Source: Verrucomicrobiia bacterium
GTDB taxonomy: Bacteria > Verrucomicrobiota > Verrucomicrobiia > Limisphaerales > UBA11358
Length of the DNA stretch: 64,000 nt
Reading direction: 5' to 3'
Assembly: GCA_031290985.1 (NCBI GenBank)
Contig: JARLJW010000094.1
Span: forward strand, 2,368 to 66,367
The notes under the pieces are model-generated. The model saw only the letters and a list, made by a program, of their open reading frames with translations. It was not told the DNA's origin and ran no database searches. Position 1 is the stretch's first letter; the number at the start of each line of letters is the position of its first letter. A program made the position numbers and the translations under genes. Of the stretch, positions 1,855-43,545 are shown one piece after another.

Positions 1855-4800
1855 CTATTTGACAATCCGATAAAATGCCTGCCGGCTGGTCATGGGCACT
1901 GTTATCAAAAATGTCCCATTTGTCAGGACGTAGGACGACACCGCTGCCGGTGTCCAAGATGCACCCGCCCCAAGTTGAGCGGAAGTTTGAAGTGAGTAGC
2001 CGGCAATATAATCCGGCCAGGTGAACGCCAGGGTTTGCCCGGCGGTGGCGATGGATAGTTTGGGCATGGGCAAAGAATTGGGGCCTGAGGCATAATCATC
2101 GGCGATTTGCGCCTTCTTCATGGCTCCACTGTACATCCGGAACTCATCGATTGTGGCCACGCCACAATTGTCGCCCGCATAGGAAGATTTGCCGAGATAG
2201 CTATGCGCATTGACGATCGCCGAAATCGACAGGGTCACATTGCTGTTGATCCCCTGCAGAACGCCATTGGTGTAAACAGCCATGTACCCCGCAAGGGAAT
2301 CCCAAATCAGCACCAAATGGATCTTGCCCTGGTTATCCAATATAGGCGGCACGGCAATATTTTGGACGGAGGCATTGCCGGGGTCGGTGCCTGAGACTTC
2401 AAAATTAATGCCGCCGGGCCCATAACCGCTGTGCGGGGTGAAATCCAGGCAGTAACGGCCATTCCCGGTATCAGAGTTGGTGTCGCCAAAGTCAATCAGG
2501 CGACCCCAGGCACTATTGGTTCCGAACGCGACCCAAAACTCAAGCGTCACCGCCGTATAATTGGTGCTCGTGAGCAGATAAGGCGGCAATTCCGCGTAGT
2601 TTGTTTTCTGATTCAAACCGCCCAAAACCAGATTTCCATTCCCATCAATGCGGGCACCACCGTGAATAATGCCATTGGTAACACCCGGCACAGAATCAAC
2701 AAACTGAGTGGAATTGGCCGGTTCGTTAAAGCTCCAACGATGTGTGAGGGCCACCGGTGAAGCCGGCGGCGGCAGCATCGTTTGTCCTTGAAATGTGATG
2801 GTGGTGACGGAGTTTGCAGCAAACGTATAAGTGGTATTGCCGCCATTAAAATGATGCTGCCAACTGATGTTCGCCGGCACGAATCCCAAAGGAGCTTGCG
2901 CGGTGTTGACTGAACTTTGTAATGCCGCGAGCACCTGGACGGCGGCGGCGGGATTCGTTGGTACGAAACCGGAAATATTGATCGTGGCGGATTCCGGGGA
3001 ACTATTGAGATTGACCACCTGCAACACCAGTTGGCTTCCGTCCTGACTGCCTTCCGCACTGACATCCAAATCATTATTTGGATCGGCAACACTGCTCTGA
3101 ATTTCCAGCGGCTGAAAATTGGCCGCATACATCTGGGTCACATAGCCAGGCGGTTGCAACCAGACGTTGGACTGGTTCAGAAACAACAGCCCCTGATCCC
3201 AGCCGTTGTTGTTCTGGCCGTCGGGCTGCAAACCATTGGCCGACGTGGTGATTGGCAGCCGCCCATCCCGTTCAATCGCGTTGATCGCCAGCGCATTGCC
3301 CAAGGCGCGCCGCTGGGAGTGATTGTTCGCGTTCAGTTCAAACACCACCACCTGGTAATTCGCGCCATTGGCAATCTGCCCCAGCGCCGTGTCATACGAA
3401 AACATCCCCGCCAGACTGTTGTCCGCCCCCGGTCCGTCGGTCCACACATGCACATCAAACCACACCGCCCGGTTATTTGTCTGCGCCAGTTGCATAATCT
3501 GCTGGTGCGTCGCCAGGGTTGTGATGCCCGAATCGGCACCGCCGAAATTGAATGGATCGGTGATGACCGAATGATATGAAAAATCCCCGACGACCAGGAT
3601 GACATTCGTGTCCACGGCCCAAATGGCCTGGGCCACGGCTTGAAATTTCTGGTAATAGGTGTTGTTTACCGTCTCCTCATTGCCAAGTTCCAGGTATTTC
3701 AAGTTGTAAGGTTGTGGATGGCCCTCCGCCAGACGTCGCGCGCCCCAAACCGTGTTCGTTGAGCCGTTGGCGTATTGCATAAAATCCGCCATGTCCTGCG
3801 GCGTCTCGTTGATGTTGAAATCTGGAACCGCAAGAAATCCGGCCGCTTCACAGAAGTTCAGGAAGTCAGGAATGCCCCAGCCATCCGAGGAATACGGATA
3901 CCAGGTGCCGGTGTATGGCGGACGTTGATCACGCGGTCCAATCATGTTTTTCCAGCGGTATCCCGGGGCATTGACCATCGAACCACCGTAGCGTAAAACG
4001 GTGACGCCTTGGTTTATCAACCCCTGCACCACATCCTGGCGCACCGGCAACCCCTGAAAACATCCCCAGGGTCCGGGCTGTAAAAACGCATAACCCACCA
4101 CCACCGAGCCGGGCTGTTTCAGCTTGATGCTAAAACGCCCGTTGGCGTCGCTGGCGGCTGGTGTCAGGTTAAAAGCGAGCTGCTGCCAGTTGTTGCTGGT
4201 CACCAAAAGACTTTGCTCCGCATACACTGCGGATCCGTCCGCACTCTCCAATGACACCCAGAGGGTCGCTGGCGCATCGGCCCGCACATCGAGGGTTCCC
4301 GTGTAAGGCTTGCCGCCAACAAAGTTCAGTCCCCAATGGTTCAGCCCCTGATTGGCCAGGCCAATCGTTCCGGTTCCGCCCGTAAAGGAGAGCGCCTGGC
4401 TTTGCATTCCGACAAACACATTCGTGGTCGCCAACGAACCTTGGCCCGCGGCGGTGCCCGTGACGACCGGACTCCACATTCCGCTGATACTTCCATTTAA
4501 ACCATTGCCCGCGACCTGAAAGGGAATGTTGGTGCCATTGATGAAGAGATTTTGAAACTGTGCGTCCTGCTGCCAGGTGCGCAATCCCACCTGTCCGCTG
4601 GTGAGCGGCTGTTGGGTGTCGGTGTATTGCAAAACACTGTTGCTGTTGATGAGGATGTTGAGCGAGGCATTGGTGTATTGCACCTCCAAGGTGATCCATT
4701 GGCCGATGGGGACGGAGCAGGACACCTGACTTAAGGATGTGAAGTTCTGGACATGCCGCCCCAGCACCAAATAACCCGCCGGTGCCAATGAAATTTCATA

Positions 4801-5296: not shown

Positions 5297-7504
5297 TCAT
5301 CGAGTCGGTTCTCCATAGATATGGCGGCCAATAATCTGATTCTGATAAGCCGCGTCGAGCTCGCAAAAATAGCCGCTCCAGCCCCAGACACGCACCACGA
5401 GATTCTTGTGCCGTTCAGGATGCAACTGAGCATCTTTGAGGGACTCAACGTTAAGGGTGTTGATCTGAAGCTGCTGGCAACCCACGGCGGCAAAAAGGCG
5501 GATCAGCAAGGCCACTTGATGGATCGCCTCGGGATTTCGGAAAACGGTGTCGGACAATTCCAACGTCAGCGGCCCGCCATTGCAGATCCGTTGATAGTTA
5601 ATCTTGCTGTAACTCTTGAATACACTGAAGGGGCCGCGCACCTGCACCCCGGGCGAAGGTGCGAGGCTGGAACTAAAAAAACCGCCGCTTTTTCTGCCAT
5701 CCGCCGTGGCTCCCACCATCGGCTCGGTCATGGCCTCGTGGCCTTGCGCCAGCCAGACATAGAACATGGCCGAACCGCTCCCGGGTCGGAAAATGCCGCC
5801 GCGGCCATTATTGGGGAAGGATTCGCAAGCATCGGCAAACAGGTCAAATAACTTGACCAGCATGGCATCGGCACGTCCATCGTCATTGCCCACCTTGGGG
5901 GCTTCATCGAAGAGCTTTTTCCGCAGCTCCTCATCCTGCTCGAAGTTTGTATCCAGCGCAGCCAACAGGCGCCGGGCAGACAGTCCGCGCTCATCAAACA
6001 CGAAAGTCTTAACCGCCGCCAATGCGTCCGCCGCATTGGATGAACAGGCGCCGTGAATGCCAAAATTGTTATATTCCAGCCCCTGCGAGAGATCACAACC
6101 ACGTTCCAGGCAGCCGTTCATGAGCACGCTATAGTAAGGAGCCGGCGGAAGCAGCAGACGAGCGGAGCGCTCCGCCAGTTTTGCGACCTGCGAGCGCAGG
6201 TTCGCACCCACCCGGCCCAGTATTTTATCGAAGCCATCGCCGGCGGCCAATCCGGAGCGGATGGCGGAGTCAACCGCCGCTGGCATGGAAACCGCGCCGA
6301 TGTTCACGATTTCCATCCCCCGGCCGGGGATGAGAAATTCCCAGCAAGCCGCCACCGAATAGTCACGGGCATCCGCAAGAGCGTAGCCATGCGCCACCAA
6401 CCCCGGAATAACCACGTCGTCATTTGAGTATTGGGGAAATCCCAGGCCGATCTGGGTTAATTCCGCCGCCAGTTCCAGGAGGTCAAGGCCGGTGTCTTTC
6501 GTGACCCGCAGATTTATTTTCGGATCAATCATCCCCACGCCGCGCGCCACGCGCAGCACCATGTACGTCAATTCATTCACGCCGCTGGAGCCGTCGCGTT
6601 TCACTCCGCCGAGCATGAGCGATTGTCCATTGTCGCCTTGTTGGATGCCGGGATACAAATCACTGTCCTTGTTCAAAGACAGGAAAAATTCAGCCAGCAG
6701 TTGTTCGGCGCCATTTAGATCTACTCGGCCCAAATCCAGGTCCCTTTTTAGATACGGCCACATGTATTGGTCAAATCGTCCGAGCCCGCAGTGATAATGT
6801 CCCCCCAGCCACAAAACGGCATGGCCCAGGCGCAGGGCTTGCAGCGCCTCATGAAAGCTGCTTGCGGGTTGCGCGGGCACGCGATAGAGAATTTTGGCCA
6901 GATCATGGCGCTGATTTCGCGAAGCCTCCTCCGCATAACGACACGCCAAATCCAACACCGCATCAATCGTCTCGATGGCGCCGTCCAGAAATTCAACCGC
7001 CTTTGGATCATCTTTCAGTCTGGCGCGGGAGGCGAGCGCAACGTTGCGCCGGCTTAACAGGCCTTGGGACAGAACCATTTCCCAGTCCGCGCAAATGTTG
7101 CTGATCGGCCCCAGTTCGTGCAGCGCGCAGCCGGAGGCCAGGTTCCGCTGTTGGGATTCGCTGTAAACCGGCGGAACGTTTCCGGTCGTCCGCGTAAAGA
7201 CGATTCGCTCCTCCGGGGGAATGACAATTTTCTGGGCCTCGCACATGCGCCGGATCAGGCGCGCGGCCCGCTGCGGCCAGGAGAGCTGTTCGGCGTCGCA
7301 TTCGGCAAGCAAATCCACCTCCGCCGAAGTGCGATATTGCTTGTAATGCCCGTCCCGCAACGCCTGCTTCATTTCCACCAACCGCGGTTCCAATTCAAAC
7401 CGGTTGCGGGCTCTTGAATGGTGGCTTAATTCCACTCCATCAATGCCCGTAACTGGAGGTTTGAACCTTGGATGGGTGATGGGCTCGTTTAAGACGTTAT
7501 TCAT
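5297..7504 (-). CDS. Glycyl radical enzyme (PFL superfamily, Cys-x-Glu eliminase/dehydratase-like), 735 aa
   Basis: C-terminal glycyl-radical loop NLVVRVWGWSGYFCEL (Gly708, codon 5381..5383). Thiyl loop YSVAACWEFLIPG (Cys387, codon 6344..6346; Glu389). The start ATG overlaps the activase stop (ATGA at 7501..7504). Confidence 0.9.
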   Translation of the reverse strand: MNNVLNEPITHPRFKPPVTGIDGVELSHHSRARNRFELEPRLVEMKQALRDGHYKQYRTSAEVDLLAECDAEQLSWPQRAARLIRRMCEAQKIVIPPEERIVFTRTTGNVPPVYSESQQRNLASGCALHELGPISNICADWEMVLSQGLLSRRNVALASRARLKDDPKAVEFLDGAIETIDAVLDLACRYAEEASRNQRHDLAKILYRVPAQPASSFHEALQALRLGHAVLWLGGHYHCGLGRFDQYMWPYLKRDLDLGRVDLNGAEQLLAEFFLSLNKDSDLYPGIQQGDNGQSLMLGGVKRDGSSGVNELTYMVLRVARGVGMIDPKINLRVTKDTGLDLLELAAELTQIGLGFPQYSNDDVVIPGLVAHGYALADARDYSVAACWEFLIPGRGMEIVNIGAVSMPAAVDSAIRSGLAAGDGFDKILGRVGANLRSQVAKLAERSARLLLPPAPYYSVLMNGCLERGCDLSQGLEYNNFGIHGACSSNAADALAAVKTFVFDERGLSARRLLAALDTNFEQDEELRKKLFDEAPKVGNDDGRADAMLVKLFDLFADACESFPNNGRGGIFRPGSGSAMFYVWLAQGHEAMTEPMVGATADGRKSGGFFSSSLAPSPGVQVRGPFSVFKSYSKINYQRICNGGPLTLELSDTVFRNPEAIHQVALLIRLFAAVGCQQLQINTLNVESLKDAQLHPERHKNLVVRVWGWSGYFCELDAAYQNQIIGRHIYGEPTR

Positions 7505-30995: not shown

Positions 30996-31093
30996 ACGTT
31001 ACTTGCCGGCCTTGAACCCCGCGTTTTCGTAAAAGCACACGATCTTTACCTTCGCCGCCGGGCCCGGCCAGCAACGGCAAGGTCATTAAAATA

Positions 31094-31124
31094 CCAAGTG
31101 GCGATGCCACGCATCGCCACTTGG
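31094..31124 (-). terminator. Intrinsic terminator downstream of the symporter gene
   Basis: Perfect 14-bp stem CCAAGTGGCGATGC / GCATCGCCACTTGG with a 3-nt loop, 15 nt after the stop. On the minus strand it is followed by TATTTTAAT. Confidence 0.55.
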
Positions 31125-31138
31125 CTGCCTTTGACAGC

Positions 31139-32977
31139 TTACCAGAACTTGATGTAGAACAGCACGATGGTGCCAATGACAATCAGCGACAGGACCACGT
31201 CCAGAGCATTCCAGCTGGCCTTGGTGGCCGCTTTCTCTTCTGGCGTCGCGCCATACCAGGTGTATTTGACGGTCTTCGGATCCGGTGCCTTGGTCATGAG
31301 ACTGATGACGATCATCAACGCCAACGTGAACACGAACAAAATCTGGCACCAGTAAAGCCAGTGAATGTCCTCAAACTGGAAAATGATGCCATATTTTTCC
31401 TTGATCGGCGCAATCATCGTCGCGTATTGATCCGCGGTGATCGTGCCTTGATAAAGATGTTCCTTCAGGTCTTTCAGCGAACTGCCGTCAGCCGCTTTGA
31501 CATCTTTCATAACCAAGTCCGCCGCCAACCGCGCAAAGCCGCCGATGACACCGATGGAGAACGACCATAGCGCCGCCGGTGCCGTGGCCCGTTTCCAGAA
31601 CACGCCAACGCCAAACAACACCGCGATGGCGGGCGAAAGATAGCCTTGCACGCTTTGCAGGTATTCATACAAATTCGAGTGCAGCATCTTGATGACCAGC
31701 ACCCAGCAAATACCGACGAACACAATCACCGCCGTGGCGATGCGACCCACGAGCACCTCGGTTTTGCCGGAGGCGTTGGGATACCATTCGCGATAGAAGT
31801 CCATCGTAAACAGCGTGGCGGAGGCGTTGAATTTGGAGCCGAGCGACGCCATGAGGGCGACGATCATGCCGCAAGCCACCATGCCGCGCAGGCCGTGCGG
31901 AAGAATTTGTCCGACAAGTGAAGTGTAAGCCGCGTCGCCGCTGGTGCTGAAACCGCTGCCGGGCGTCTGCGTGAGCGCAAACGCAATCATTCCGGGGATC
32001 AGAAAAATGAACACCGGGGTGAGTTTGAAGAAACCGGCGAGAATCGAACCCCGCCGCGATTCCTGCTGGTTTTTTCCAGCCAGCACACGTTGGACGATGT
32101 ATTGGTCGGTGCACCAATACCAGAAGCCAATGATGGCCGATGAAGGCAATACCTTCGTCCATCCCCATTCGGGATCATTCTTCGAACGGATCAGGTGGAT
32201 ATTGTTACCCGCCGCAGAGAGCATCGTGTGCCATCCTTCCGCGAGACTGCCGTGGCCGAGCGCACGCAGACCTACGAACAAAATACACAGCGAGCCAAAG
32301 ATCAGGACCGGCGCCTGCAGCACGGCGGTATACATGATGACGCGCATGCCGCCGAAGATCGTGTAAAGACCCGTGGTGAACGCCAGGCCGAGCGCGATGG
32401 CCCAGAAGACGTCAATGTCACCTAAACCGGGAACATGGATTTTTTGCACGTTCAACAAAGTGCGGATGACGACATCACCGGCGTAGATGGTCGCGGCAAT
32501 TTTCGTCAATACCAGGCTGGCCATCGTGAGCAGGCTCAAGACGTTTCGCGAACCGCGGCTGAAGCGCAGTTCGAGAAATTCCGGCATGGTGAATATTTTC
32601 ATGCGGTCATAAAGCGGCACGAAGGCCCAGCCCAGAATCAGAATGATCCACCCGTGCATTTCCCAGTGTGCCATCGCCATGCCAGTGAGGAAGCCGGCGC
32701 CGGCGAGACCGACGAGGTGCTCGGAACCGATGTTCGAGGAGAAGATCGAGGAACCGATCTGCAGCCAGTTCGCATCGCGACCGGACAGAAAGTAATCCTT
32801 GCCCGACTCGTTCTTCTTCCGCATGGAGAACCAGACGGTCGCGATCATGCCGATGGCAAAGGCGATAATGACCGCCAGGTCCAGCCCATTGAACACCGTG
32901 CCATTCAAACCTCCCGCCACGGAGGCGGCGGCCAGCGAGTTGGTCGCCACCTCGACTGCATTTGTTATTTCGTTCAT
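31139..32977 (-). CDS. Sodium:solute symporter family (SGLT-like) sugar transporter
   Basis: 612 aa, multi-TM, with SSF motifs (DYFLSGRD..., GGMRVIMYTAVLQ). The track start 32992 is TTG; the first ATG is 32977. Confidence 0.9.
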   Translation of the reverse strand: MNEITNAVEVATNSLAAASVAGGLNGTVFNGLDLAVIIAFAIGMIATVWFSMRKKNESGKDYFLSGRDANWLQIGSSIFSSNIGSEHLVGLAGAGFLTGMAMAHWEMHGWIILILGWAFVPLYDRMKIFTMPEFLELRFSRGSRNVLSLLTMASLVLTKIAATIYAGDVVIRTLLNVQKIHVPGLGDIDVFWAIALGLAFTTGLYTIFGGMRVIMYTAVLQAPVLIFGSLCILFVGLRALGHGSLAEGWHTMLSAAGNNIHLIRSKNDPEWGWTKVLPSSAIIGFWYWCTDQYIVQRVLAGKNQQESRRGSILAGFFKLTPVFIFLIPGMIAFALTQTPGSGFSTSGDAAYTSLVGQILPHGLRGMVACGMIVALMASLGSKFNASATLFTMDFYREWYPNASGKTEVLVGRIATAVIVFVGICWVLVIKMLHSNLYEYLQSVQGYLSPAIAVLFGVGVFWKRATAPAALWSFSIGVIGGFARLAADLVMKDVKAADGSSLKDLKEHLYQGTITADQYATMIAPIKEKYGIIFQFEDIHWLYWCQILFVFTLALMIVISLMTKAPDPKTVKYTWYGATPEEKAATKASWNALDVVLSLIVIGTIVLFYIKFW

Positions 32978-33000
32978 AGGATGTGATTCCAATTACACGA

Positions 33001-34152
33001 CTATTTCTTTTCCACACCAAACTTGTAGATGATCGTGTTGTGATAGGTCTCGCCCGGGTTCAACTCGGTCGTGGGAAACGCCGGATGGTTCGGTGAATCC
33101 GGAAAGTGCTGCGGCTCAAAGCACATCCCGTTGCGGAACTGATACGTCCAGCCGCCCTTCCCCGTGATCGTGCCGTCAAGGAAGTTGCCGCTGTAGAACT
33201 GCAGGCCCGGCGATGTGCTCCAGACCTCCATGGTGCGCCCGCTGGTCACCTCGTACACGGCTGCTGCCAGCGAAACTCCTTCACCGTCCCGGTTCAAGAC
33301 CCAGTTGTGATCATAGCCGCCGCCAAACTTCAATTGTTCGTCCGCCGCATTGATCCGCTCGCCAATCGTGTGCGGCGTGGTGAAGTCAAACGGCGTTCCC
33401 GCCACCGGCCGCAGTTCGCCCGTCGGAATCAGGCCGGCGTCCACCGGCGTGTACTTGTCGGCGTTGATGGTCAGAATCGTGCCCAGAATGTCACCGCTGC
33501 CGCGCAGGTTGAAATAGGAATGGTGCGTCAGGTTCACGACGGTTTTCGCGCTGGTCGTGGCGGAAAAGTCGAGGCGCAGTTCATTGTCTTCCGTCAGGGA
33601 ATAAACCGCCGTCACCGAAAGCGTGCCCGGATACCCTTCCTCGCCGCCCGGGCTCACATAAGCCAGAATCAGCGACGGGCCGTGCGCTGTCGGCATCGGC
33701 CGCGCCGTCCACACCACCTTGTCAAAGCCCTTCAAGCCGCCGTGCAACGAGTTCACGCCGTTGTTCGTCGCCAGCGTATAGGTCTGCCCGTCGAGCGAGA
33801 ACTTCCCGTTCGCAATGCGGTTGCCATAACGGCCGACCAACGCGCCGAAGTACGGCGTGCTCTTGAGGTAGCCGTCCAGATTGTCGTAGCCCAGCACCAC
33901 GTCGCCCAGTTTGCCGGTCTTGTCCGGCGTCTTGAGCGATGTCACGATGCCGCCGTATGTCATGATCTTTGCCTCCATGCCCTTGCCGTTGCGCAGGGTG
34001 TAGAGTTGCACGGCCTTGCCGTCTGGCGTCTGGCCAAAATCGATCTTGGTGATGGTTCCTTTCGGGGTGTTGTTCATAGTTTCGCAGCCGGTAAAACACG
34101 CCGCTGCGATGCCGAGCGCCGTGACCGTAATGAGTTGGATGATTTTTTTCAT
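33001..34152 (-). CDS. galM: Aldose 1-epimerase (galactose mutarotase) with a lipoprotein signal peptide
   Basis: Motifs NGVNSLHGGLKGFDKVVW, LTHHSYFNL and FCFEPQHFPDSPN. N-terminus MKKIIQLITVTALGIAAACFTGC (lipobox) from ATG 34152. Confidence 0.9.
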   Translation of the reverse strand: MKKIIQLITVTALGIAAACFTGCETMNNTPKGTITKIDFGQTPDGKAVQLYTLRNGKGMEAKIMTYGGIVTSLKTPDKTGKLGDVVLGYDNLDGYLKSTPYFGALVGRYGNRIANGKFSLDGQTYTLATNNGVNSLHGGLKGFDKVVWTARPMPTAHGPSLILAYVSPGGEEGYPGTLSVTAVYSLTEDNELRLDFSATTSAKTVVNLTHHSYFNLRGSGDILGTILTINADKYTPVDAGLIPTGELRPVAGTPFDFTTPHTIGERINAADEQLKFGGGYDHNWVLNRDGEGVSLAAAVYEVTSGRTMEVWSTSPGLQFYSGNFLDGTITGKGGWTYQFRNGMCFEPQHFPDSPNHPAFPTTELNPGETYHNTIIYKFGVEKK

Positions 34153-34236
34153 GGTTGTTTTTGGCAGTGGGTTACTTGGGGCAATGGTAAACACCCCGAC
34201 TGTGTTTGCGAATAAAATGTTTGTCGTGAATTTTCA

Positions 34237-34935
34237 TCACCGCTGGCCGTAGGTCGCCTTCGGACCGTGCTTGCGCATAAAATGCTTGTCCAGCAGCACG
34301 CCCTGCATCGGCTTGATCTTGGGGTTGATCCGCAGCGTCTCGCTGTTCAGGCGAGCAATGAACTCCAGCACGCTCGCGTTATGCACCGCATCATTCACGT
34401 CTTTGCCCCAGGTGAACGGGCCATGGCTCGCCACCAGCACCGCCGGATGCTGCCGCGGGTCAAACTTCAGCTTCTTGAACGTCTCCACGATCACATCGCC
34501 GGTGTTCGCCTCGTAATCGTTTTTGATTTCCGCCGCCGTCAGCTTGCGCGTACAGGGCACGTCGCCATACCAGTAATCCGCCTGCGTCGTGCCATAGGCC
34601 AGCAATGGCTGGCACGCCTGCGCCCATGACGTCGCAAACAAGCTGTGCGTATGCACCACCCCGCCGATCCCCTTGAACGCGCGATAAAGAATAAGATGCG
34701 TGTCTGTGTCCGAACTGGGCTTGAGCTTGCCCTCCACCACCTCGCCCGTCGCCAGCGACACGCAGACCATGTGCTGCGGCTTCATCTCTGAATATGGGAC
34801 CCCGCTCGGCTTGATGACCATGACGCCGCGCTCGCGGTCCACCGCGCTCGCATTCCCCCACGTCTGGATGACCAACCCTTCGGCCACCAGGTCCAAATTC
34901 GCCTTGCAGACTTCAGCTTTTAATTTTTCCAACAT
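34237..34935 (-). CDS. araD: L-ribulose-5-phosphate 4-epimerase
   Basis: Near-colinear with E. coli AraD as recalled: [14 protein letters not shown]...[22 protein letters not shown]...KPSSDTDTH...GGVVHTHS. Confidence 0.92.
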
Positions 34936-34950
34936 AAAAATTTATTTTGA

Positions 34951-34975
34951 CCACGGATGAACACAGATAAACACG
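34951..34975. repeat. Left arm of a perfect 25-bp inverted repeat (CCACGGATGAACACAGATAAACACG)
   Basis: It is the exact reverse complement of 35527..35551. The sequence type resembles REP-like intergenic elements common in PVC genomes. Confidence 0.9.
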
Positions 34976-34984
34976 CATGAAATT

Positions 34985-35518
34985 TCATTCGTTCAATCGC
35001 CAAATCGCATACATGTCGCATTGTGCATGAGCATCTTCCGGGTGTTTTTCTGCCAAAACCGATTTAATCTCATTTGCGCGTTCAAATTCTGAAATCAAAC
35101 CAAATGAATTCAGTTCTTCTTTGCTAAATACATCTGAGAATCCGCAGTTTGTAAGCGCACTGGTATGCGTCTGCTCATCAATGAGTTCATATCCCATGAA
35201 TTTAAAATCACCCGTTGATGGAGGTTTTGTTATGTGCGCTTCGGGATTCCGGTACAATCCTAAAATATTTCTTCGTTTTACGGACTGAACACGGTTTAAC
35301 AGATAGTCCAAATGGCAAAAATAGCGAAGTAGGTAATCAGCGTTTACAATATGATTCCAATCTTCGTCCGATATTTCTACAAGAATAGGGTTGCATAGCG
35401 ACCCATCCAGACCAACCACTTCGGCCAATGCCGGGATTTTCGCATGCTCAAAATACTTCTTCCATGCCTCGTCACTGGGGTCGAAGCGTTCAGTTGCTAT
35501 GAACAGTGGTTCGATCAC
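34985..35518 (-). CDS. Hypothetical protein (177 aa), low-GC cassette ORF between araB and araD
   Basis: Uninterrupted ORF with a GTG start in the same orientation as the operon. It is visibly AT-richer than its flanks, and I recognise no family motif. Confidence 0.5.
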   Translation of the reverse strand: MIEPLFIATERFDPSDEAWKKYFEHAKIPALAEVVGLDGSLCNPILVEISDEDWNHIVNADYLLRYFCHLDYLLNRVQSVKRRNILGLYRNPEAHITKPPSTGDFKFMGYELIDEQTHTSALTNCGFSDVFSKEELNSFGLISEFERANEIKSVLAEKHPEDAHAQCDMYAIWRLNE

Positions 35519-35526
35519 TTTTTATC

Positions 35527-35551
35527 CGTGTTTATCTGTGTTCATCCGTGG
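35527..35551. repeat. Right arm of the perfect 25-bp inverted repeat (CGTGTTTATCTGTGTTCATCCGTGG)
   Basis: Exact reverse complement of 34951..34975. Confidence 0.9.
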
Positions 35552-35558
35552 TTAAAAA

Positions 35559-37235
35559 TCATTTCCTCACCCGGCTTCGGATCGCAATCAACTTCTTCAT
35601 CACGCCATAAAGATTCCCATTCCACTGCTTCGTGCCAAATGCATCGTGCAATTGCTTGTAGAGCGCGTAAAGCTCCTTGTAGACCGCATGAGTCTTTGGA
35701 TTCGGCTTGTACACGGTCGACTTCAGGCCAGTCATCTTCTTTTGCGCCGTCGCAAAATCCTTGTACGCCCCCGCCACCACCGCCGCCGCGATGGCCGACC
35801 CCAGCGCGCATGTCTGCGCCGAGCGCGAAATCTTCATCGGCCGCCCCGTGATGTCCGCGTAGATCTGCATCACCAGCGCGCTCTTGTCCGCGATGCCGCC
35901 GCAGTTCACCACTTCGGAAATCTTCACACCATATTCCTCATAGCGGTTGATGATGGTCAGCGCACCGTAAGCCGTCGCCTCCACCAACGCGCGATAGACT
36001 TCCGCCGGCGTCGTATACAGCGTCTGGCCCACGATCAGGCCGGTGAGTTGCTGGTCCACGAGCACGGTGCGGTTGCCATTGTTCCAGTCCAGCGCCAGCA
36101 ACCCGCTTTCGCCCGGCTGCAGTTTCAAGGCGGCCTCATCAAGCTGCCGGTGCGACAAGGCCTTGGTCCCGCCCGGCTGGATGTAATCCACCCACCAGTT
36201 AAAAATATCGCCCACCGCCGACTGCCCGGCCTCGATGCCAAAATAGCCCGGCACCACGCTGCCGTTCACGATGCCGCAAACGCCCGGGATGTCCGCCAGC
36301 TTCGCCGTGTTTACGCGCACGCTGATGTCGCAGGTGCTCGTGCCGATGATCTTCACCAGCGTGCCCGGCTTCACGCCCGCACCAATCGCCCCGGTGTGCG
36401 CATCGAACGCGCCGACCGTCACGGGAATCCCCGCCGGCAGCCCCGTGCGCTTCGCCCAGTCCGTCGTCAAATTTCCCACCGCTGAATCCACGGCCAGGAC
36501 GCGCGCCGGCAAACGGTCGCGTAACGCGCCCAGCTTGGGATCCAGCTTGGAAAGAAACGCCTTGTCCGGGTAGCCGCCCCAGGTCGTGCTATACATCGCC
36601 TTGTGACCGGCGGCGCAGATGCCCGCAATGAAACTGCGCGGGTCCAGCGTGTCCGTCAATGCGGCGGGCACCAGGTCGGAAAGCTCGATCCACGAATGCG
36701 CGGCGTCAAAAACTTCCGGCGCGCTGCGCAGGCATTTCAAGATCTTGCTGAAAAACCATTCGCTCGAATACGTCCCGCCGCACTTGGCTAGATATTGCGG
36801 GCGCATCCTGCGCGCCAACGCGGTGATCTCGGTCGCCTCCGCGATGCCCGTATGGTCCTTCCACAACCACGCCATCGCGGCGGGGTTGTTCGCAAATTTC
36901 TTTTGAAATGCCAGCGGCTGCCCGCGCTTGTCCACCGGCAACGGCGTGCTGCCCGTCGTATCCACGCCGATGCCGATGACCTGCGCGGCGCTGAAACCTT
37001 TGACCGATTTCTTCGCCGCCGCCAACGCCTGCTTGATGGTGATCTCCGCACCCTTCAGATAATCCGCCGGATGCTGCCGCGCCAGATTCGGGTCGCGGCC
37101 GAGAATGACCCCTGCCGTGCCGTGTTCGTAGCCCCAGACCGCCGCCGCCACTTCCGCGCCGTTGGCGACATTGACAATGAGGGCGCGAACCGAGTTTGTG
37201 CCGTAGTCCAGACCGATGGTGTATTTCGTTGGCAT
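35559..37235 (-). CDS. araB: Ribulokinase
   Basis: FGGY kinase. N-terminus YTIGLDYGTNSVRALIV, 558 aa, positioned within the ara cluster. Confidence 0.9.
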   Translation of the reverse strand: MPTKYTIGLDYGTNSVRALIVNVANGAEVAAAVWGYEHGTAGVILGRDPNLARQHPADYLKGAEITIKQALAAAKKSVKGFSAAQVIGIGVDTTGSTPLPVDKRGQPLAFQKKFANNPAAMAWLWKDHTGIAEATEITALARRMRPQYLAKCGGTYSSEWFFSKILKCLRSAPEVFDAAHSWIELSDLVPAALTDTLDPRSFIAGICAAGHKAMYSTTWGGYPDKAFLSKLDPKLGALRDRLPARVLAVDSAVGNLTTDWAKRTGLPAGIPVTVGAFDAHTGAIGAGVKPGTLVKIIGTSTCDISVRVNTAKLADIPGVCGIVNGSVVPGYFGIEAGQSAVGDIFNWWVDYIQPGGTKALSHRQLDEAALKLQPGESGLLALDWNNGNRTVLVDQQLTGLIVGQTLYTTPAEVYRALVEATAYGALTIINRYEEYGVKISEVVNCGGIADKSALVMQIYADITGRPMKISRSAQTCALGSAIAAAVVAGAYKDFATAQKKMTGLKSTVYKPNPKTHAVYKELYALYKQLHDAFGTKQWNGNLYGVMKKLIAIRSRVRK

Positions 37236-37240
37236 AAATT

Positions 37241-39607
37241 TTAATCCGTTATGTTGGCGCGCAAAACCCGCAGGCCATACAGGCCGCCAGCCAGATTGCC
37301 CGGATGCGCGGCGAACTTCACGGTGATGCTTTGCTTGTCTTGAGTAAGTTCGGGCGGCAACGAAAATACCACGTCAAAAAATTCACCGGCCTTGGAGTTG
37401 CCCAATTTTTGCGTGCCGATGATTTTGCCGTCCACCAGTACGTCGAATGCGCGCGCGCCAGCATCGCTGCCCCAGAACGTGGCGACGAGTTGCTGCGGCT
37501 GGCCGGACAGCACCTTCATTTCGTAGCTGAACCAGCCGGCGGCGTGGCGCCACTTGCGCCCGTAAAAATCACCGGTCTGCGTATCCTCGCCCTGCATCTT
37601 GTGATCAGTCTCGGACTGCGGCTCGCCGGGGCGGACGACATCCACCACCCGTGCTTCCTCGGACATGCGGCTCGCCTCGGTGGCGGCGATGCCGGCGGCC
37701 TGCACCTTCCAGTCGGCCTCGGAGATCAACTTCCAATAAACCGAGTAACGCTGGCGATGCAGTTCGTAAAATGGGATCAGGGTCACATCCACGGGCCGGC
37801 CGATGCCATGCGTACGGAACGTCAGTGGCCGGCCGGAACTTGGTTTGACGTGGCGGAGCAAATCAGCCGGCGCGCTCACCAACATCGGGACGGCCGGCGC
37901 GGGCAGGCGGCTGTAATCCGTTTGGTTCGGGGTCATTGGGTTCGGCATGGCCGTGTTCCCGAGTTCACCGGCCAGGACAATCGGCCCATAAAGCAGGGCG
38001 ACTTCGTTGGTCGTGCCGGGCAGAAATTCCGTGTGCAATTTCATCGGCAACTGGATTTTTACCGTATCGCCGTCGTGCCATTCACGCTGAACGGCCAGGT
38101 AGCTGCCGGGCGCGGATTTGATTTTCTGCCGGCTGCCGTTCACCGAAATTTTCAGGCCGTCGGCCGCCCAGGCGGGCTGCCGGATTTTTAACGCGAACAC
38201 CACCGGCCTCTCCGCCTTGATTTTTAAAACCGTTATGCCGCTCTCGGGAAATTTTGTCTCCTGCCGGACGGAAACCCCTTTTTCCGCCCAGTTCAATTCC
38301 GAGGCGATGAACAGATTCACATAAAGCGAATCCGCAGCGTGGAAATAAATCGTGTCGCCGTATTTGGAATGATTCTCCATGCCGGTGCCAATGCAGCACC
38401 AGAAGGAATTCTCCGGCGTCGAATAGACCTTGAAATGTCCCGGTTTGAGCGACATGAAATAAGTGAACATGCCGGTCTCCGGATCCTGCGAACCGAGGAT
38501 GTCGTTGTAGAGCGCACGTTCGTAAAAATCCATTTTCACCGCGTCCGGCTCCAGCGCGAACAGCTCGCGCGTGAGCTTGAGCATGTTGTAGGTGTTGCAG
38601 GTTTCCGCCGTGTCGGTGCCCAGGTGTTGGCCGAAATCGTTGGTCGGAAAAAAATGCTCATGGTCACTGTCGCCGCCGATGACGTAGGAACGATGCAGCG
38701 CGACTGCGTTCCAAAACGTCTGCGCCACGGTGAGGAACTGCGCGTCGCCGGTGAGTTCGTATTCCCGCGTCGCGCCGATGATCTTTGGAATTTGCGTGTT
38801 GGCATGGAGCCGGTCCAGCTTGTCCTCGCCACGCGCGAGCGGAGCAAAAACCTTCTGGTGGTTGAAGGCTTCGGCGACCCGCAGATAGTTCGTGTTGCCC
38901 GTCACCGCGTAAAGATTGGCGAGCACTTCATTCATCCCCCCGTGTTCGGTGTCGAGCGACTTCTGCATCTGCTCCGGCGTCAGGTGGTCCACGTGGAATT
39001 TCACCCAGTCAGCCATCTGCGTCAGAACCTCCAGCGCCTGCGCGTTTCCGCAGCGCTGGTTCGCCTCAAGGAGGCCGGCCATGATTTTGTGCAATGTATA
39101 CCACGGTGCCCAGACCCGCTGCCCTTGCTCCAGTCGGTCCATGAATGATTCCGGGAACGCCGATAAATAACCCTCATGGAATCCAGCGGCGGGTGAATGG
39201 CTCTGGCACTTCGCCAGTTCGCCGACAATGTAATCCGCGCGTTTTTTGAACCGCCCGTCGCCGGTGCTGGCATACATCAGCGACAGCGCCGAGAGGTAGT
39301 GGCCGAGGCTGTGGCCGCGCAACTCGCAATCCGGCGCCTCCCAGCCGCCATAAGGCTTCGCGTCTGTGGGCAGCCCGACATTGACACGGAAGCTCCGTAG
39401 CAGCCGGTCCGGATCCAGCGTCAGCAGATATTTTTGATCCCGCAACATTGCGTCGCGGAACGGGCCGTCCAGCAGCCGCACTTCTGGCAGGGGAAACGGT
39501 TCCGCGGCCCGCACCACCTTCACCGTCACCGGCTCCGCCGACGCCATCCCGACGCAGGCCAGGAAGCCTGCAAATACTGCGTAAATTTTTCCCAATGAAA
39601 ACCGCAT
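37241..39607 (-). CDS. GH127 beta-L-arabinofuranosidase-like (DUF1680) with a C-terminal extension, secreted
   Basis: Signal peptide. Motifs RGHSLGHYLSAL, GGMNEVLANLY and FWCCIGTGMENHSKYGD (GH127 Cys pair). Confidence 0.8.
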   Translation of the reverse strand: MRFSLGKIYAVFAGFLACVGMASAEPVTVKVVRAAEPFPLPEVRLLDGPFRDAMLRDQKYLLTLDPDRLLRSFRVNVGLPTDAKPYGGWEAPDCELRGHSLGHYLSALSLMYASTGDGRFKKRADYIVGELAKCQSHSPAAGFHEGYLSAFPESFMDRLEQGQRVWAPWYTLHKIMAGLLEANQRCGNAQALEVLTQMADWVKFHVDHLTPEQMQKSLDTEHGGMNEVLANLYAVTGNTNYLRVAEAFNHQKVFAPLARGEDKLDRLHANTQIPKIIGATREYELTGDAQFLTVAQTFWNAVALHRSYVIGGDSDHEHFFPTNDFGQHLGTDTAETCNTYNMLKLTRELFALEPDAVKMDFYERALYNDILGSQDPETGMFTYFMSLKPGHFKVYSTPENSFWCCIGTGMENHSKYGDTIYFHAADSLYVNLFIASELNWAEKGVSVRQETKFPESGITVLKIKAERPVVFALKIRQPAWAADGLKISVNGSRQKIKSAPGSYLAVQREWHDGDTVKIQLPMKLHTEFLPGTTNEVALLYGPIVLAGELGNTAMPNPMTPNQTDYSRLPAPAVPMLVSAPADLLRHVKPSSGRPLTFRTHGIGRPVDVTLIPFYELHRQRYSVYWKLISEADWKVQAAGIAATEASRMSEEARVVDVVRPGEPQSETDHKMQGEDTQTGDFYGRKWRHAAGWFSYEMKVLSGQPQQLVATFWGSDAGARAFDVLVDGKIIGTQKLGNSKAGEFFDVVFSLPPELTQDKQSITVKFAAHPGNLAGGLYGLRVLRANITD

Positions 39608-39613
39608 GGTTCT

Positions 39614-42001
39614 CTATTTGGTTTGGAGCCGCAACACCGTCAATGAATTGCCCGGAAACGAACGTTTCAAGGTCGTTCCGCTGAAACTCACCGCTTCCGT
39701 CTTGGGCGAAACTTTCATCGGCTCCGCCAGGGAATTTTCATCCGCCCCGCTGTCCGAGGTCAGCACGATGGCCGTCCCCTGCCCGCTCAATTTTGCATCA
39801 CCTAGATAAACCTCCGTTTCCAGCGGTTGGGCGTTCGCGTTGACCACTTTCACGATGAGGTCGCCGGTCTTCGCTTCCGTGGCGGCGACTGCGTAGAGGC
39901 TGGCCACCTTGCTTGAGGTGTCAAAGTCCACGTCGTGGATCAGCTTGCCATCGAGCCAGCATTTAACATTCTTGCCGCTCACAGTGACCTTGAGGTCATA
40001 CCAGCGGTCGGTCTCGATGTGACTGGGCTTGGAGTCGAGCGTGCCGCCGGCTTCGATGCCATCCGCCGTGTTGTTCCAGCCGCCGACGTTCCACCAGGTG
40101 CGATCTTCATCGCCGCCGATGCGAAACATGATCATAAAGCCTTCCGCACCGGAAATTTTCCGCGCCTTCAGCGTAATGGTGTAGTCCGTCCATTCGCGCT
40201 TGCCGGCGATGGCGCGGATGAATTCCTTTTCCGCCGTCTGGCGCAGTGCTCCGTCCTGCGTCTTCCACTGTGCGCCGTCACCCAACGGCTTCCACCCTTT
40301 CATCCCTCCGTTGAAGTCCGATTCAAACAAGACGCTCCCGTCCGGTGCGGTCACCTTGACGTCCTTGTATTCCGCCGCCGTGTCCCAGGTCGCCACCCCG
40401 ATCATGCCGCCCGCCGGCGCCGTCTCGGCCAGCGGCGACTCCACCGTCGTTGGCAGCGAAACGTCGCCGCGATTTTCCGCGAACAGTTTCTGAACGTAAT
40501 AGCTCGGCAGGCCATACCACTTCTCGCTGTCGAAATTGATCAGGTCGGGATTCCATGCGCGATGATTCAGATTCACGAGCAGCGGCGCGTAGCTCGCCAT
40601 GATCACGTGATCAGAATTACGCTCCAACCCGGTCATGAACGCCGCCTCGCCGATGGCGCCGCGCAGGTTGCCCAGGCCGCAATTGCGGGTCACCGCGTAT
40701 TCGCCGACAAACACCTTCGGCTCACTGCGGTTGTATTTGTCGAAATGTGTCGCGTTGCGCATGAAAAACTCCGGCGTATCGTAAAAATGTTCGTCCACGA
40801 TGTCCGCCTTCGGCGTGCTGGGATAACCACCCTGCCAGTGGTTGGCGATAAACTTGATCTCCGGGTGCTTCGCATGGATGGCGTTCACGAACAGCGGCCA
40901 GCGCTCGCGGTACGGCACGCCGCCATTCTCGTTGCCAACTTCCAGATACTTCAGGTTGAACGACGCGGGATGGCCGTTCCGGGCGCGCGCGCCGCCCCAT
41001 AACGAATTCGTCGGACCATTCGCATATTCAATCGCATCCAGCGCGTCCTGCACCCACTCGTTCATGCGGTCCATCGGGATGACTTCCTTGTGCGACATGC
41101 CCACATTGACGTCAAACAACGGCTCCGCCCCGAGGTCTTCCGCAAGCTGCAGATATTCATGATAGCCCAGGCCCTGCGTGGAATAATAGTTCCAGATGTT
41201 CCACAGCGGCTCGCGCACATCCACGTTGCCAATGGTCTTCTTCCAGTGGTTCATGTGCGCAAAATCATCGCCCTCCACCCAGCAGCCGCCGGGGAAACGG
41301 AGAAATCCCGGATGCAGCGCATCCAGCGATTCCGCCAGGTCGGGACGCAGTCCATGATTTTTCCACGTCTTTTTCGGCATCAACGAAACCATGTCGAGGT
41401 AAAGCACGCCTTTGCCGTCGCCGGAAATCTCCAGTTTCCCCTTCGGGTCGCTGCCTGTCGCGGTCAAATCAAGCGTGTGATATTCCCACCGGCCGCCGAT
41501 GTTTGAAATCTCCCCGCTGGCCAGGACCGTGCCGGTGCTGCTCAAAACTTTCACCGTCAGCGTGCCGTTGTACTTTTCACCCCGCGCCGCCAGCTTGAAC
41601 GTGTAGCCGTCGCCGGCCACGATGTTCATGCCCCAATAGCCTTCATTCTGGAGCGTGAAGGCGCCGCCCGCCTTGATGCGGAGCGATTTGCGGTTGAACG
41701 GGTTCAACGGCGGCACGGGCGGCTTGCCCTGCACGTCCGCCGTGGCGATGGTCGCCACGCTGCCGCCGCCGGCGAATGTCCAGTCGTCCGGCTTGTCCGA
41801 ATCTTCAAATGAACGGTTGCGGACGAGTTCTGGATAGATGCCGCCGTCGGCCGAAAGGTTGATGTCCTCAAAGAAAATCCCCCACAACGTCGGCGCGATG
41901 GCGTGGGCCGGATGCGCCGCATCCACGGTGATTTTCGCGGTTTGTGCATTCGCAGCCAGCACCGCAGCCGCGAGAGCGGCGGCTATAAAGAATTTTTTCA
42001 T
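39614..42001 (-). CDS. GH51 alpha-L-arabinofuranosidase with an inserted beta-sandwich domain, secreted
   Basis: Motifs GIFFEDINLSADGGIYPELVRNRSFED, LRFPGGCWVEGD, YLEVGNENGG and VFVGEYAV. Confidence 0.85.
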   Translation of the reverse strand: MKKFFIAAALAAAVLAANAQTAKITVDAAHPAHAIAPTLWGIFFEDINLSADGGIYPELVRNRSFEDSDKPDDWTFAGGGSVATIATADVQGKPPVPPLNPFNRKSLRIKAGGAFTLQNEGYWGMNIVAGDGYTFKLAARGEKYNGTLTVKVLSSTGTVLASGEISNIGGRWEYHTLDLTATGSDPKGKLEISGDGKGVLYLDMVSLMPKKTWKNHGLRPDLAESLDALHPGFLRFPGGCWVEGDDFAHMNHWKKTIGNVDVREPLWNIWNYYSTQGLGYHEYLQLAEDLGAEPLFDVNVGMSHKEVIPMDRMNEWVQDALDAIEYANGPTNSLWGGARARNGHPASFNLKYLEVGNENGGVPYRERWPLFVNAIHAKHPEIKFIANHWQGGYPSTPKADIVDEHFYDTPEFFMRNATHFDKYNRSEPKVFVGEYAVTRNCGLGNLRGAIGEAAFMTGLERNSDHVIMASYAPLLVNLNHRAWNPDLINFDSEKWYGLPSYYVQKLFAENRGDVSLPTTVESPLAETAPAGGMIGVATWDTAAEYKDVKVTAPDGSVLFESDFNGGMKGWKPLGDGAQWKTQDGALRQTAEKEFIRAIAGKREWTDYTITLKARKISGAEGFMIMFRIGGDEDRTWWNVGGWNNTADGIEAGGTLDSKPSHIETDRWYDLKVTVSGKNVKCWLDGKLIHDVDFDTSSKVASLYAVAATEAKTGDLIVKVVNANAQPLETEVYLGDAKLSGQGTAIVLTSDSGADENSLAEPMKVSPKTEAVSFSGTTLKRSFPGNSLTVLRLQTK

Positions 42002-42030
42002 GTCAAAGTATTTGCCCGCGGAAATTACGG

Positions 42031-43545
42031 TTACGCCGCCCAGCCGCCTTTCAGACCATAAGCCGCATCATTCCACGCCAGTTCCTGCTTAAACTGCCGC
42101 AGCTTCGTATCCGCATCGATCACCACGACTTCCAAGCCCGCGATCGCGCCAAAGTCCTCCAGCATCTCCGTCGTGACCGCCTGGCTGAAGCCGGTATGAT
42201 GCGCCCCACCGGCATAAATCCACGCCGCGCACGCATCCTCAAAACTCGGACGGCACTGCCACACCGCCTGCGCCACCGGCAGCTTGGGCATGGAATGTTC
42301 CGGCGTGATGCAATCCACCTCGCTGATGAGCAGGCGGAAACGGTTGCCAAAATCCATCAGCGAGGCGTTCACCGCCGCCCCGGCCGGCGTGTTGAACACC
42401 AAACGCGCCGGATCCGCCTTGCCGCCGATGCCCAGCGGATGCACCTGCAACGAAACCTTCCCATCCGCAATGCTCGGGCAGATCTCCAGCATGTGCGCGC
42501 CGAGGACCAGTTTGTTTCCCGGCTGCAAATGATAGGTATAGTCCTCCATGAACGACGTGCCGCCCTCGAGGCCGCTGGCCATCACCTTCATCGCACGGAC
42601 GAGCGCGGCGGTTTTCCAGTCGCCTTCGCCGCCAAATCCGTAGCCCGCCGCCATCATGCGCTGCGAGCCCACGCCCGGCAGTTGCGCGAGACCATGCAAA
42701 TCTTCAAACGTGTCCGTATAGCCCTTGTAGCCGCCGGCCGTCAGGAATTGCAAAATACCCAGCTCGATGCGCGCCGCTTCGCGGACAGATTTATGCCGCT
42801 TGCCGCCCTTCTTCAAGTCGGCGGTCATTTCATAAGCCCCTTCATAGGTTTTGCACAGGGCGTCCACTTCCTTTTCGGAAACTGCATTGACCACTTGGAC
42901 GAGATCGCCGACACCATGGGTGTTCACCGAGAAACCGAACTTCATCTGCGCGGAAACCTTGTCGCCTTCCGTCACGGCCACCTCGCGCATGTTGTCGCCA
43001 AAACGGACGAACTTGCCGCCCTGCCAGTCCGCCCACGCGGCGGCGGCCCGGGTCCACGCCCCGATCTTTTCCTGCGTCGCCTCTTCCTGCCAGAAACCAA
43101 CCACCACTTTGCGGTTCAGCCGCATCCGGCTCATGATGAAACCATGCTCCCGGTCGCCGTGCGCCGCCTGGTTCATGTTCATGAAATCCATGTCGATCGT
43201 CGCCCACGGCAGGTCGCGGTTATATTGCGTGTGCAGATGGCAGATGGGCTTGCGCAGTTGCTTGAGCCCGTTGATCCACATCTTCGACGGCGAGAACGTG
43301 TGGCACCAGGTCACGAGACCGATGCACTTCGCCGCATTGTTCGCCTGCTGGCAAAGTTCCGTGATGGCGTCCGGCGAAACCATCACCGGTTTGAACACGA
43401 CCTTGACCGGGATCGCGGGCGCGGCATTAAGCGCCTTGGCGATTTCCTGTGAATGTTGCGCGACCGCCTTCAAGGTTTCCGGTCCGTAAAGATGCTGGCT
43501 GCCCGTGACGAACCAGACTTCAAATTGTTTGAGGTTAATTTTCAT
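42031..43545 (-). CDS. araA: L-arabinose isomerase
   Basis: [28 protein letters not shown] matches the E. coli AraA N-terminus as recalled. The track ORF start 43644 is an upstream extension; the ATG is at 43545. Confidence 0.92.

Follow-up and report, generated by a model that had tools for sequence, protein, structure and literature searches.

A small gene nested in a REPIN-like inverted repeat between araB and araD of a Verrucomicrobiia bacterium, and its recurrence at other operon junctions

The araB-araD junction of an arabinose operon in a Verrucomicrobiia bacterium (NCBI GenBank assembly GCA_031290985.1, contig JARLJW010000094.1, positions 2,368 to 66,367; this 64,000-nucleotide stretch is called the window below) carries a 177-amino-acid open reading frame (ORF) enclosed by a perfect 25-bp inverted repeat. 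This is a genuine feature, broader than could be seen in the initial annotation, which was made from the sequence alone. We consider it probable, with a good deal of reserve, that the ORF is a promoterless passenger gene sitting in the loop of a palindrome that resembles a REPIN (a hairpin formed by two repetitive extragenic palindromic, or REP, sequences), and that it has spread by recombination or by mobilization in trans. The initial annotation had proposed either a foreign passenger gene between ends resembling REPs or miniature inverted-repeat transposable elements (MITEs), or two independent REP insertions around an orphan gene. The former is supported by the abundance of the arms in the Planctomycetes-Verrucomicrobia-Chlamydiae (PVC) group, the patchy distribution of the gene family, the empty site of close relatives and the presence of the cassette at five operon junctions.

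The 25-mer CCACGGATGAACACAGATAAACACG on one side of the ORF is matched by its exact reverse complement on the other (Table 1), and both the coordinates and the complementarity given in the initial annotation were confirmed. With up to three mismatches allowed, these are the only two copies of CCACGGATGAACACAGATAAACACG in the window (0 expected from 100 shuffles). When mismatches are tolerated within the repeat, it reaches 45 nt at 87% complementarity and is by far the strongest inverted repeat of the window. The 5' arm consists of TTTTTAAC followed by three 10-bp-periodic units, CACGGATGAA, CACAGATAAA and CACGGAT; both arms have this three-unit make-up and are framed by ..TTTAAC / GTTAAA.. ends. 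The arms are convergent, and each lies within 10 nt of the corresponding end of the ORF. The window is contained at 100% in four bioreactor metagenomes, and its sequence is covered free of mismatches by contigs of four independent runs. Because these runs agree and homologous cassettes are present in independent assemblies, the structure is not an assembly artefact.

The cassette, in the order arm, A-rich linker, ORF, short linker and arm, recurs at five unrelated operon junctions in Verrucomicrobiota (individual loci are given by L numbers). Cassettes with arms are present at araB-araD in the window, L001, L013, L200, L203 and L015 (the L015 contig begins inside the ORF, leaving the right arm alone visible), and also at trpA-manC (L008), sufB-sufC (L009), lutA-lutB (L004) and bioB-bioD (L205). 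The arm-ORF-arm arrangement is found in at least 10 independent loci, and every cassette is co-oriented with its operon. The linkers are alike between junctions, being short and A-rich before the start codon and short and T-rich after the stop codon. In L203, a GC-rich repeat of about 230 bp belonging to another PVC family (2237-2480, containing ...GCGGTGTCGCCGCTGCGCTCTGCCACCGCAGTCCAAGA...) lies between the left arm and the ORF; this repeat is called as a gene of 73 amino acids without a Pfam match, and the same cassette has a degenerate right arm.

The arms are members of an abundant REPIN-like family that makes no target duplication, and not private transposon ends. As the initial annotation had supposed, they belong to a repeat type of PVC genomes: the hairpins are common in Verrucomicrobiota and occur in some Planctomycetota, and arms were found only at PVC loci. 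As a rule, a pair of arms surrounds 5-190 bp of loop and occupies a short spacer within an operon. Scanning of metagenome contigs with a degenerate arm pattern gave at least 120 loci, and among the loci listed there are 199 arms, namely 63 convergent pairs and 73 solo arms. In these 63 listed pairs the arms are mostly separated by -4 to 193 nt, and none holds ORF-sized cargo of the 177-aa family (0/63); nor did the listed loci show ORF-sized cargo between arms other than that described in this study (the 177-aa family, PDDEXK_3 and a 95-aa ORF). At the homologue loci examined, the arms always occur in convergent pairs. Short hairpins of about 150-200 bp are present between operon genes in L001 (11165-11316), L004 (6829-7027) and the Planctomycete locus L021 (5735-5920). 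In the four bioreactor metagenomes, contigs join both arms via loops of 15-39 nt, and sequencing depth at the arm exceeds that of the genome about 40-fold.

Target-site duplication, which the initial annotation had raised, was not borne out, as direct-repeat flanks were identical in only 1-3 of 54 hairpins (k=2-5). The inverted repeat is extended by AA..TT in 35 of the 54. The window element has TTTT on both sides and the empty site is TTTT as well, which is ambiguous as a target-site duplication. The label "MITE-like" fits the inverted ends without a transposase, but the family lacks detectable target-site duplication and in this behaves more like REPINs than like classical MITEs. Searches of the cassette and of the short hairpins against Rfam returned only sub-threshold look-alikes of miRNA hairpins and no family, and neither a GTAG nor a CGTC tag is present in the arms (CCACGGATG...CACGGAT). 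Sibling repeats with the same 10-bp periodicity were also seen, made up of CACAGAG units (L212 3405-3497, a bare hairpin at araB-araD) or of AATTCGCG/ATTCGTG units (L205 6170-6240; L009 4537-4570). Such variants hint that the palindromes with decamer periodicity form a large super-family in these genomes.

Other genes occupy the same or sibling hairpins. CACGGAT arms enclose a PDDEXK_3 gene of 127 amino acids in L192 (1336-1758; Pfam E = 1e-36) and a 95-aa ORF without a Pfam match in L195 (931-1254), and therefore this arm type is not tied to the 177-aa family. L210 has two PDDEXK_3 (PF13366) genes of 125 and 139 amino acids (3020-3500 and 6400-6880), each within sibling 10-bp-periodic arms: the one at araB-araD has CACGAAA-type arms, and the second, further down the same operon at a junction between binding-protein and ABC-ATPase genes, has CGCTAAT-type arms. 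PDDEXK_3 genes are also found nearby in L211 and L004. In L091 (2351-2835), CACGGAT arms surround nested GC-rich repeats that give rise to spurious ORFs.

The araB-araD junction is itself polymorphic. The empty site that the initial annotation had suggested looking for exists in L213 and L214, which have only a 4-nt spacer (TTTT) between the stop and start codons and whose araB and araD are 93% and 93.5% identical to those of the window. The same junction holds a bare sibling hairpin of CACAGAG units in L212, a PDDEXK_3 gene between sibling arms in L210 (araB 96% identical to that of the window), and an antitoxin gene plus two more genes in L211. By its araB (88.5%) and araD (86.6%) the window is nearest to L013, yet the ORFs of these two are only 63% identical. 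ORFs at different junctions pair at 78% (L015 at araBD and L205 at bioBD) and at 74% (L013 at araBD and L009 at sufBC), and the core araBD clade of the ORF comprises the window, L200, L203 and L001 at 73-84%. Judged by these sequences, the ORF and the genes on either side of it have had different histories.

Several loci contain partial duplicates of genes that flank the insert. In L004 (6560-6830), the 5' end of lutB' is fused to the 3' end of lutA' beside the insert, giving a chimeric ORF of 79 amino acids. In L015 (500-575), 42 nt of the araB 3' end are duplicated beside the insert, and L211 (455-520) has an araB 3' remnant, likewise beside its insert. L205 (5620-6290) has an extra 109-aa ORF flanked by the right arm and about 115 nt from the 5' end of bioD. 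Such duplicates would be the footprint of gaining an allele from a donor through two crossovers, one homologous and the other illegitimate. The titles of a few records look taxonomically misplaced: L010 (CAZQNQ010000005.1), titled 'uncultured Bifidobacterium sp.', has Verrucomicrobia-type genes and CACGGAT repeats, and the AraD proteins P0274 and P0327, 88-93% identical to that of the window, bear the names Candidatus Acidoferrales and Candidatus Paceibacterota. The probable cause is mis-binning or mislabelling of contigs in metagenome-assembled genomes (MAGs).

The 177-aa ORF is a real gene, because it has 284 close homologues and 501 clusters, a conserved set of motifs and a model of high confidence. 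The close homologues are 60-80% identical and all unannotated, and the clusters (at 50% identity) come from an exhaustive search at E<=1e-3. In an alignment of 79 sequences, G108 and S119 are invariant, W18, D37, L40, C124, G139, L140, A147, L154 and H163 are nearly invariant, and the motifs GYDL, SALTNCGGF and HAxC characterize the family. The initial annotation had recognized no motif in the protein, and the ORF has no match in Pfam, NCBIfam or PADLOC (the test for defence systems was thus negative), and Pfam over the 79 members gave scattered chance matches only. No Y1 HUH transposase (IS200/IS605-like, PF01797) was detected by Pfam in the ORF or the 79 members at E<=0.1, and the family profile had 0 matches among PDB sequences at E<=10. 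Remote homology and structure prediction, both suggested earlier, gave a confident fold with no relative in PDB or BFVD: the AlphaFold2 model has a predicted local distance difference test (pLDDT) score of 97.2 and a predicted template modelling (pTM) score of 0.92, and Foldseek returned best E values of 2.8 in PDB and 0.12 in BFVD, all with template modelling (TM) scores below 0.3. A MurU match (E=0.077) was sub-threshold and was dismissed. Kinship with PDDEXK_3 (PF13366) was rejected as well, with no Pfam match and an hhalign probability of 0.3% against the PDDEXK_3 alignment. Most likely the ORF encodes a soluble accessory enzyme, one that has the invariant Ser and the near-invariant Asp, Cys and His.

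A genome search with closer sequences found the gene, as a rule in one copy, in species-representative genomes of Verrucomicrobiota, Planctomycetota, Mesorhizobium, Acidobacteriota, Chloroflexota, Gemmatimonadales, Bacteroidota and Desulfosporosinus. It was not found in sequenced plasmids and phages by tblastn. Its Pfam-annotated neighbours are unrelated pairs of housekeeping genes, namely trpA and manC, sufB and sufC, a histidine kinase with a sigma-54 response regulator, aroC beside a transporter, and rtcB. At most loci the upstream gene is co-directional and often only a few nt away, and across 56 loci no partner gene recurs. The Bacteroidota and Firmicutes loci gave no pattern of immunity arrays, with a single DUF4304 neighbour. 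At most loci of high-GC hosts the AT content of the gene is above that of its surroundings, typically by about 0.1, and in low-GC Bacteroidota it equals theirs. Synteny of the family is stable across four Mesorhizobium species. In two Blastocatellia MAGs (L038 and L041, 3980-4560), the gene lies between histidine kinase and sigma-54 response regulator genes with gaps of 5 and 27 nt and no repeats; the habit of settling in tight operon junctions is therefore independent of the hairpins. In L006, the gene together with about 430 bp upstream is flanked by a 59-nt direct repeat of a different family (…GGGGCGGCGCGGCAGCGCCAGCC), at 5504-5561 and 6548-6604.

The 5' arm contains a mini-ORF of seven codons (Table 1), which is in frame with the main ORF and stops 3 nt ahead of its GTG. 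In several homologues, e.g., that of L205, the ATG of the mini-ORF is open into the ORF, giving an N-terminal extension of the form MNTD.HG or MDTDKHG, and at least eight further homologues have such extensions, which are translations of the left arm. The ATG and mini-ORF of the arm may be a detail that bears on expression.

Several known systems share parts of this architecture. REPINs and the so-called REPtrons and TIRtrons, which are RAYT (REP-associated tyrosine transposase) or TIRYT (its counterpart for terminal inverted repeats, TIRs) genes flanked by REPs or TIRs, have been described (PMC3116915, PMC3337134, PMC3733652, PMC2817692). Like REPINs, the hairpins are abundant intergenic palindromes with two inverted arms and a spacer, usually located just after coding regions and without target-site duplication. 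Like a REPtron or TIRtron, the cassette was found to have a single gene between inverted copies of a dispersed repeat. But neither sequence nor fold makes the enclosed protein a Y1/HUH transposase, and the same arms hold other, unrelated genes; lacking an HUH transposase, the cassette is not a REPtron. The arms also differ from the REP super-families (PMC3733652) in having three 10-bp-periodic units instead of a short GC-rich hairpin and in having no GTAG/CGTC tags, and because of this missing tag they are not a classical REP super-family.

With mobile insertion cassettes (MICs) and MITEs bearing passenger genes, such as the qnrS2 MIC (PMC5444012; definitions in PMC3129680), the element has in common terminal inverted repeats, the absence of a transposase inside, one passenger gene and shorter 'empty' relatives with the same ends. 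It is neither, because there is no detectable target-site duplication and no known parent insertion sequence (IS) with these ends; moreover, the elements here are located in chromosomal operon spacers and not on plasmids. In IS elements that target REPs, such as IS1397/ISKpn1 and ISPpu9/ISPpu10 (PMC1525189, PMC12288879), a gene-bearing insert likewise lies inside a REP palindrome and is flanked by the repeat halves, but our cassettes have no transposase or recombinase and no ends of their own, only a short A-rich linker between the arm and the start codon. By analogy, the cassette would work most like a REPIN with acquired cargo or like a MIC, and in form it is a REPtron or TIRtron without a transposase. 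The layout would equally be the expected outcome of insertion into a REP target (PMC1525189, PMC12288879).

Resemblance to integron cassettes lies in the promoterless, co-oriented single ORF that depends on upstream transcription and in the imperfect palindromes. Presumably the ..TTTAAC / GTTAAA.. ends also loosely resemble the integron RYYYAAC/GTTRRRY. Here, however, the ORF is inside one palindrome and not between attC sites, and the sites are dispersed over housekeeping operons; with no attC array, the element is not an integron cassette. No integrase was seen at the locus, where intI was not searched for specifically. Finally, the gene shares with the free-standing homing endonuclease genes of phages its small size, higher AT content, patchy distribution, position wedged between conserved co-directional genes, and signs of recombination-mediated spread with co-conversion of flanks. 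It differs from them in having no nuclease motif or fold and in residing in cellular chromosomes of many phyla, while being absent from sequenced phages and plasmids.

Recurrence, polymorphism of the site and conflict between the trees are observations; the engine of movement is one that we infer. Under the passenger-gene explanation, the gene would owe its transcription to read-through from the arabinose operon. Between hairpin sites, the composite would be moved in trans by the mobilizer of the hairpin family, in a REPIN-like manner without target duplication, or alternatively would shift by ectopic recombination through the arms of about 30 bp. Between related genomes it would travel by homologous recombination, or by homology-facilitated illegitimate recombination, via the flanking operon genes, which would account for the partial gene duplications at several loci. 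A number of points weigh against this explanation. No transposase or other mobilizing enzyme is tied to the arms, no excision or insertion event has been observed directly, and the window has only one pair of arms. If the gene by itself inserted independently and specifically into loops, the linkers would be conserved equally well, and this is indistinguishable from movement of the whole unit. Verrucomicrobial copies without arms exist (L006, L012, L014 and L016), and outside the PVC group no flanking inverted repeats accompany the gene family, for which reason the arms are not intrinsic to the gene. The tree is identity-based and crude, so that rate variation could account for part of the conflict with the flanks. 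The RNA evidence is a single low-depth contig, the metatranscriptomes being too sparse to show processing, and no homology (Pfam, NCBIfam, PADLOC, PDB or Foldseek) establishes the function of the protein.

Among the rival explanations, a one-off capture is unlikely, if not to the extent of the others: the gene would have been inserted once into a REP hairpin acting as a target or fragile site, the arms being the split target, and then transmitted vertically or by homologous transfer of the whole operon. REP sequences are indeed targets of IS insertion (PMC1525189; ISPpu9, PMC12288879), bare hairpins are found in the same kind of spacer (L212; L001 11165-11316), the duplicated gene fragments point to recombination through the flanks, and the ORF has a core araBD clade (the window, L200, L203 and L001, 73-84%). 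But five unrelated junction types share homologous arms and linkers, related alleles are located at different junctions (L015 and L205, 78%; L013 and L009, 74%), and a shift from araB-araD to bioB-bioD is impossible by flank homology alone. It is quite improbable that the 177-aa protein acts as a novel site-specific nuclease on empty alleles or hairpins, its gene being copied by recombinational repair as in homing. The patchy distribution across phyla, the co-directional position in tight junctions even without arms (the histidine kinase-response regulator junction of L038/L041, 5 and 27 nt), a GC content below that of the host in most high-GC loci, the flanking-gene duplications and co-conversion-like tree conflict, and the involvement of the nuclease-fold family PDDEXK_3 in the neighbouring phenomenon all agree with homing, but no nuclease family or fold is matched, PDDEXK_3 itself is unrelated (hhalign probability 0.3%), no cleavage site is defined, and synteny is stable in the four Mesorhizobium species.

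Very improbable, too, is that the protein is a new non-HUH repeat-associated enzyme which disperses the CACGGAT hairpins and is flanked by its own substrates. The architecture, a gene between inverted copies of an abundant repeat, fits a REPtron or TIRtron (PMC3733652, PMC3116915), the gene is apparently single-copy, it has the invariant Ser and near-invariant Asp, Cys and His, and the hairpins are without target duplications, as REPINs are. This is countered by the presence of PDDEXK_3 and another ORF in the same arms, by the lack of flanking repeats at most family members in many phyla, by the confinement of the arms to PVC bacteria while the gene is far more widespread, and by the lack of a Y1/HUH signal in Pfam, the PDB profile and the fold search. 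In enterobacteria, REP hairpins in operon spacers affect mRNA stability, and the initial annotation had suggested that the arms could form a long-range stem in the mRNA, with the ORF looped out and expression of araD, galM and the transporter affected; stability of this downstream message might be tuned as well. The minimum-free-energy fold of the 641-nt transcript does pair the arms (z = -4.6), and in metatranscriptomes the contigs lie more densely on galM and the transporter than on araB and GH127. However, in silico pairing of a perfect inverted repeat is trivial, and as a selected function the stem is not supported, given the other cassettes, whose arms are about 70-93% complementary and sometimes badly decayed (degenerate in L203 and L009), and the closest relatives, which have a 4-nt spacer and no element. 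Nor is the partner arm consistently the best match, and similarity of 0.79 within pairs versus 0.76 between pairs gives no convincing sign of a constraint on pairing (registration is imperfect for L013 and L009), no Rfam family was found, and RNA data are too sparse to show processing; we regard a regulatory role as highly improbable. The chance bracketing of an orphan gene by two independent solo REPs, the second reading of the initial annotation, is barely conceivable. Solo arms do exist (73 solos alongside the pairs in the 199 arms among the loci listed), but these two are the sole arms of 64 kb, convergent, perfectly complementary and no more than 10 nt from the ORF ends. Arms normally form one convergent pair, unrelated junctions have the arm-linker-ORF layout in common, and chance bracketing is excluded by the recurrence of this arrangement, known from at least 10 independent loci.

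The coordinates of the junction are collected in Table 1. The 177-aa ORF with a GTG start, described in the initial annotation, was confirmed with one correction: it is on the minus strand, as are all its neighbours, and is thus co-directional with the operon. Beyond araB and araD, the operon includes by Pfam an aldose epimerase, an SSF symporter, a glycoside hydrolase of family 127 (GH127) and a GH51 arabinofuranosidase. Gaps elsewhere in the operon are 5, 6, 8 and 42 nt, in agreement with the 5-42 nt noted initially, and the contrast in composition between an AT-rich ORF and GC-rich ara genes was likewise upheld, GC being 0.38-0.46 across the ORF (about 0.41 for the gene) versus 0.60-0.67 in the flanks. 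A scan for promoters and terminators found no such site at the cassette, and in metatranscriptomes one low-depth contig overlaps the ORF. In three metatranscriptomes of the same study (window 31000-42100), contigs were denser over galM and the SSF transporter (31000-34300) than over araB and the upstream glycoside hydrolases, e.g., GH127, although these data are too sparse for interpretation.

Table 1. Features at the araB-araD junction, in window coordinates
Feature	Position	Strand	Remarks
Passenger gene, 177 aa, GTG start, TGA stop	34985..35518	-	W18, D37, G108-Y-D/E-L, S119-ALTNC124-GGF, G139-L, H163-A-x-C166 conserved
Mini-ORF within 5' arm, 7 codons (ATG AAC ACA GAT AAA CAC GGA TAA; MNTDKHG, then stop)	35522..35545	-	
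5' arm (transcript sense; operon-proximal)	35520..35564	none	Perfect core 35527-35551; overlaps the araB stop codon region
3' arm (transcript sense; operon-distal)	34938..34982	none	Perfect core 34951-34975; 2 nt short of the araD start codon
araB, FGGY-family kinase, ribulokinase-like	35559..37235	-	Pfam; upstream of the cassette
araD, class II aldolase, L-ribulose-5-phosphate 4-epimerase	34237..34935	-	Pfam; downstream of the cassette

REPs and REPINs are usually viewed as short gene-free repeats whose sole associated gene is a transposase, whereas here palindromes repeatedly carry unrelated genes that are not transposases. In the literature library searched, no paper was found on non-transposase genes nested in REP-type hairpins of PVC bacteria. 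The spacers that receive this cargo belong to housekeeping operons (ara, suf, bio, lut and trp), and its expression there by read-through is presumed. The family of the 177-aa protein, being widespread and having a confident fold without a PDB neighbour, an invariant Ser and near-invariant Asp, Cys and His, is a good target for structural and functional work. A wider idea, which we put forward as speculative and on balance doubtful, is that the 10-bp-periodic hairpins in operon spacers of PVC bacteria serve small promoterless genes generally as a vehicle or docking site (so far the 177-aa family, PDDEXK_3 and others), in effect a dispersed cassette system without an integrase by which housekeeping operons gain accessory genes, or that one of the nested proteins is a new repeat-associated driver enzyme. 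If hairpins do ferry or capture genes, they would provide a route of accessory-gene flow in an abundant and poorly studied phylum of soils and bioreactors, and this would account for the highly polymorphic operon junctions in that phylum.

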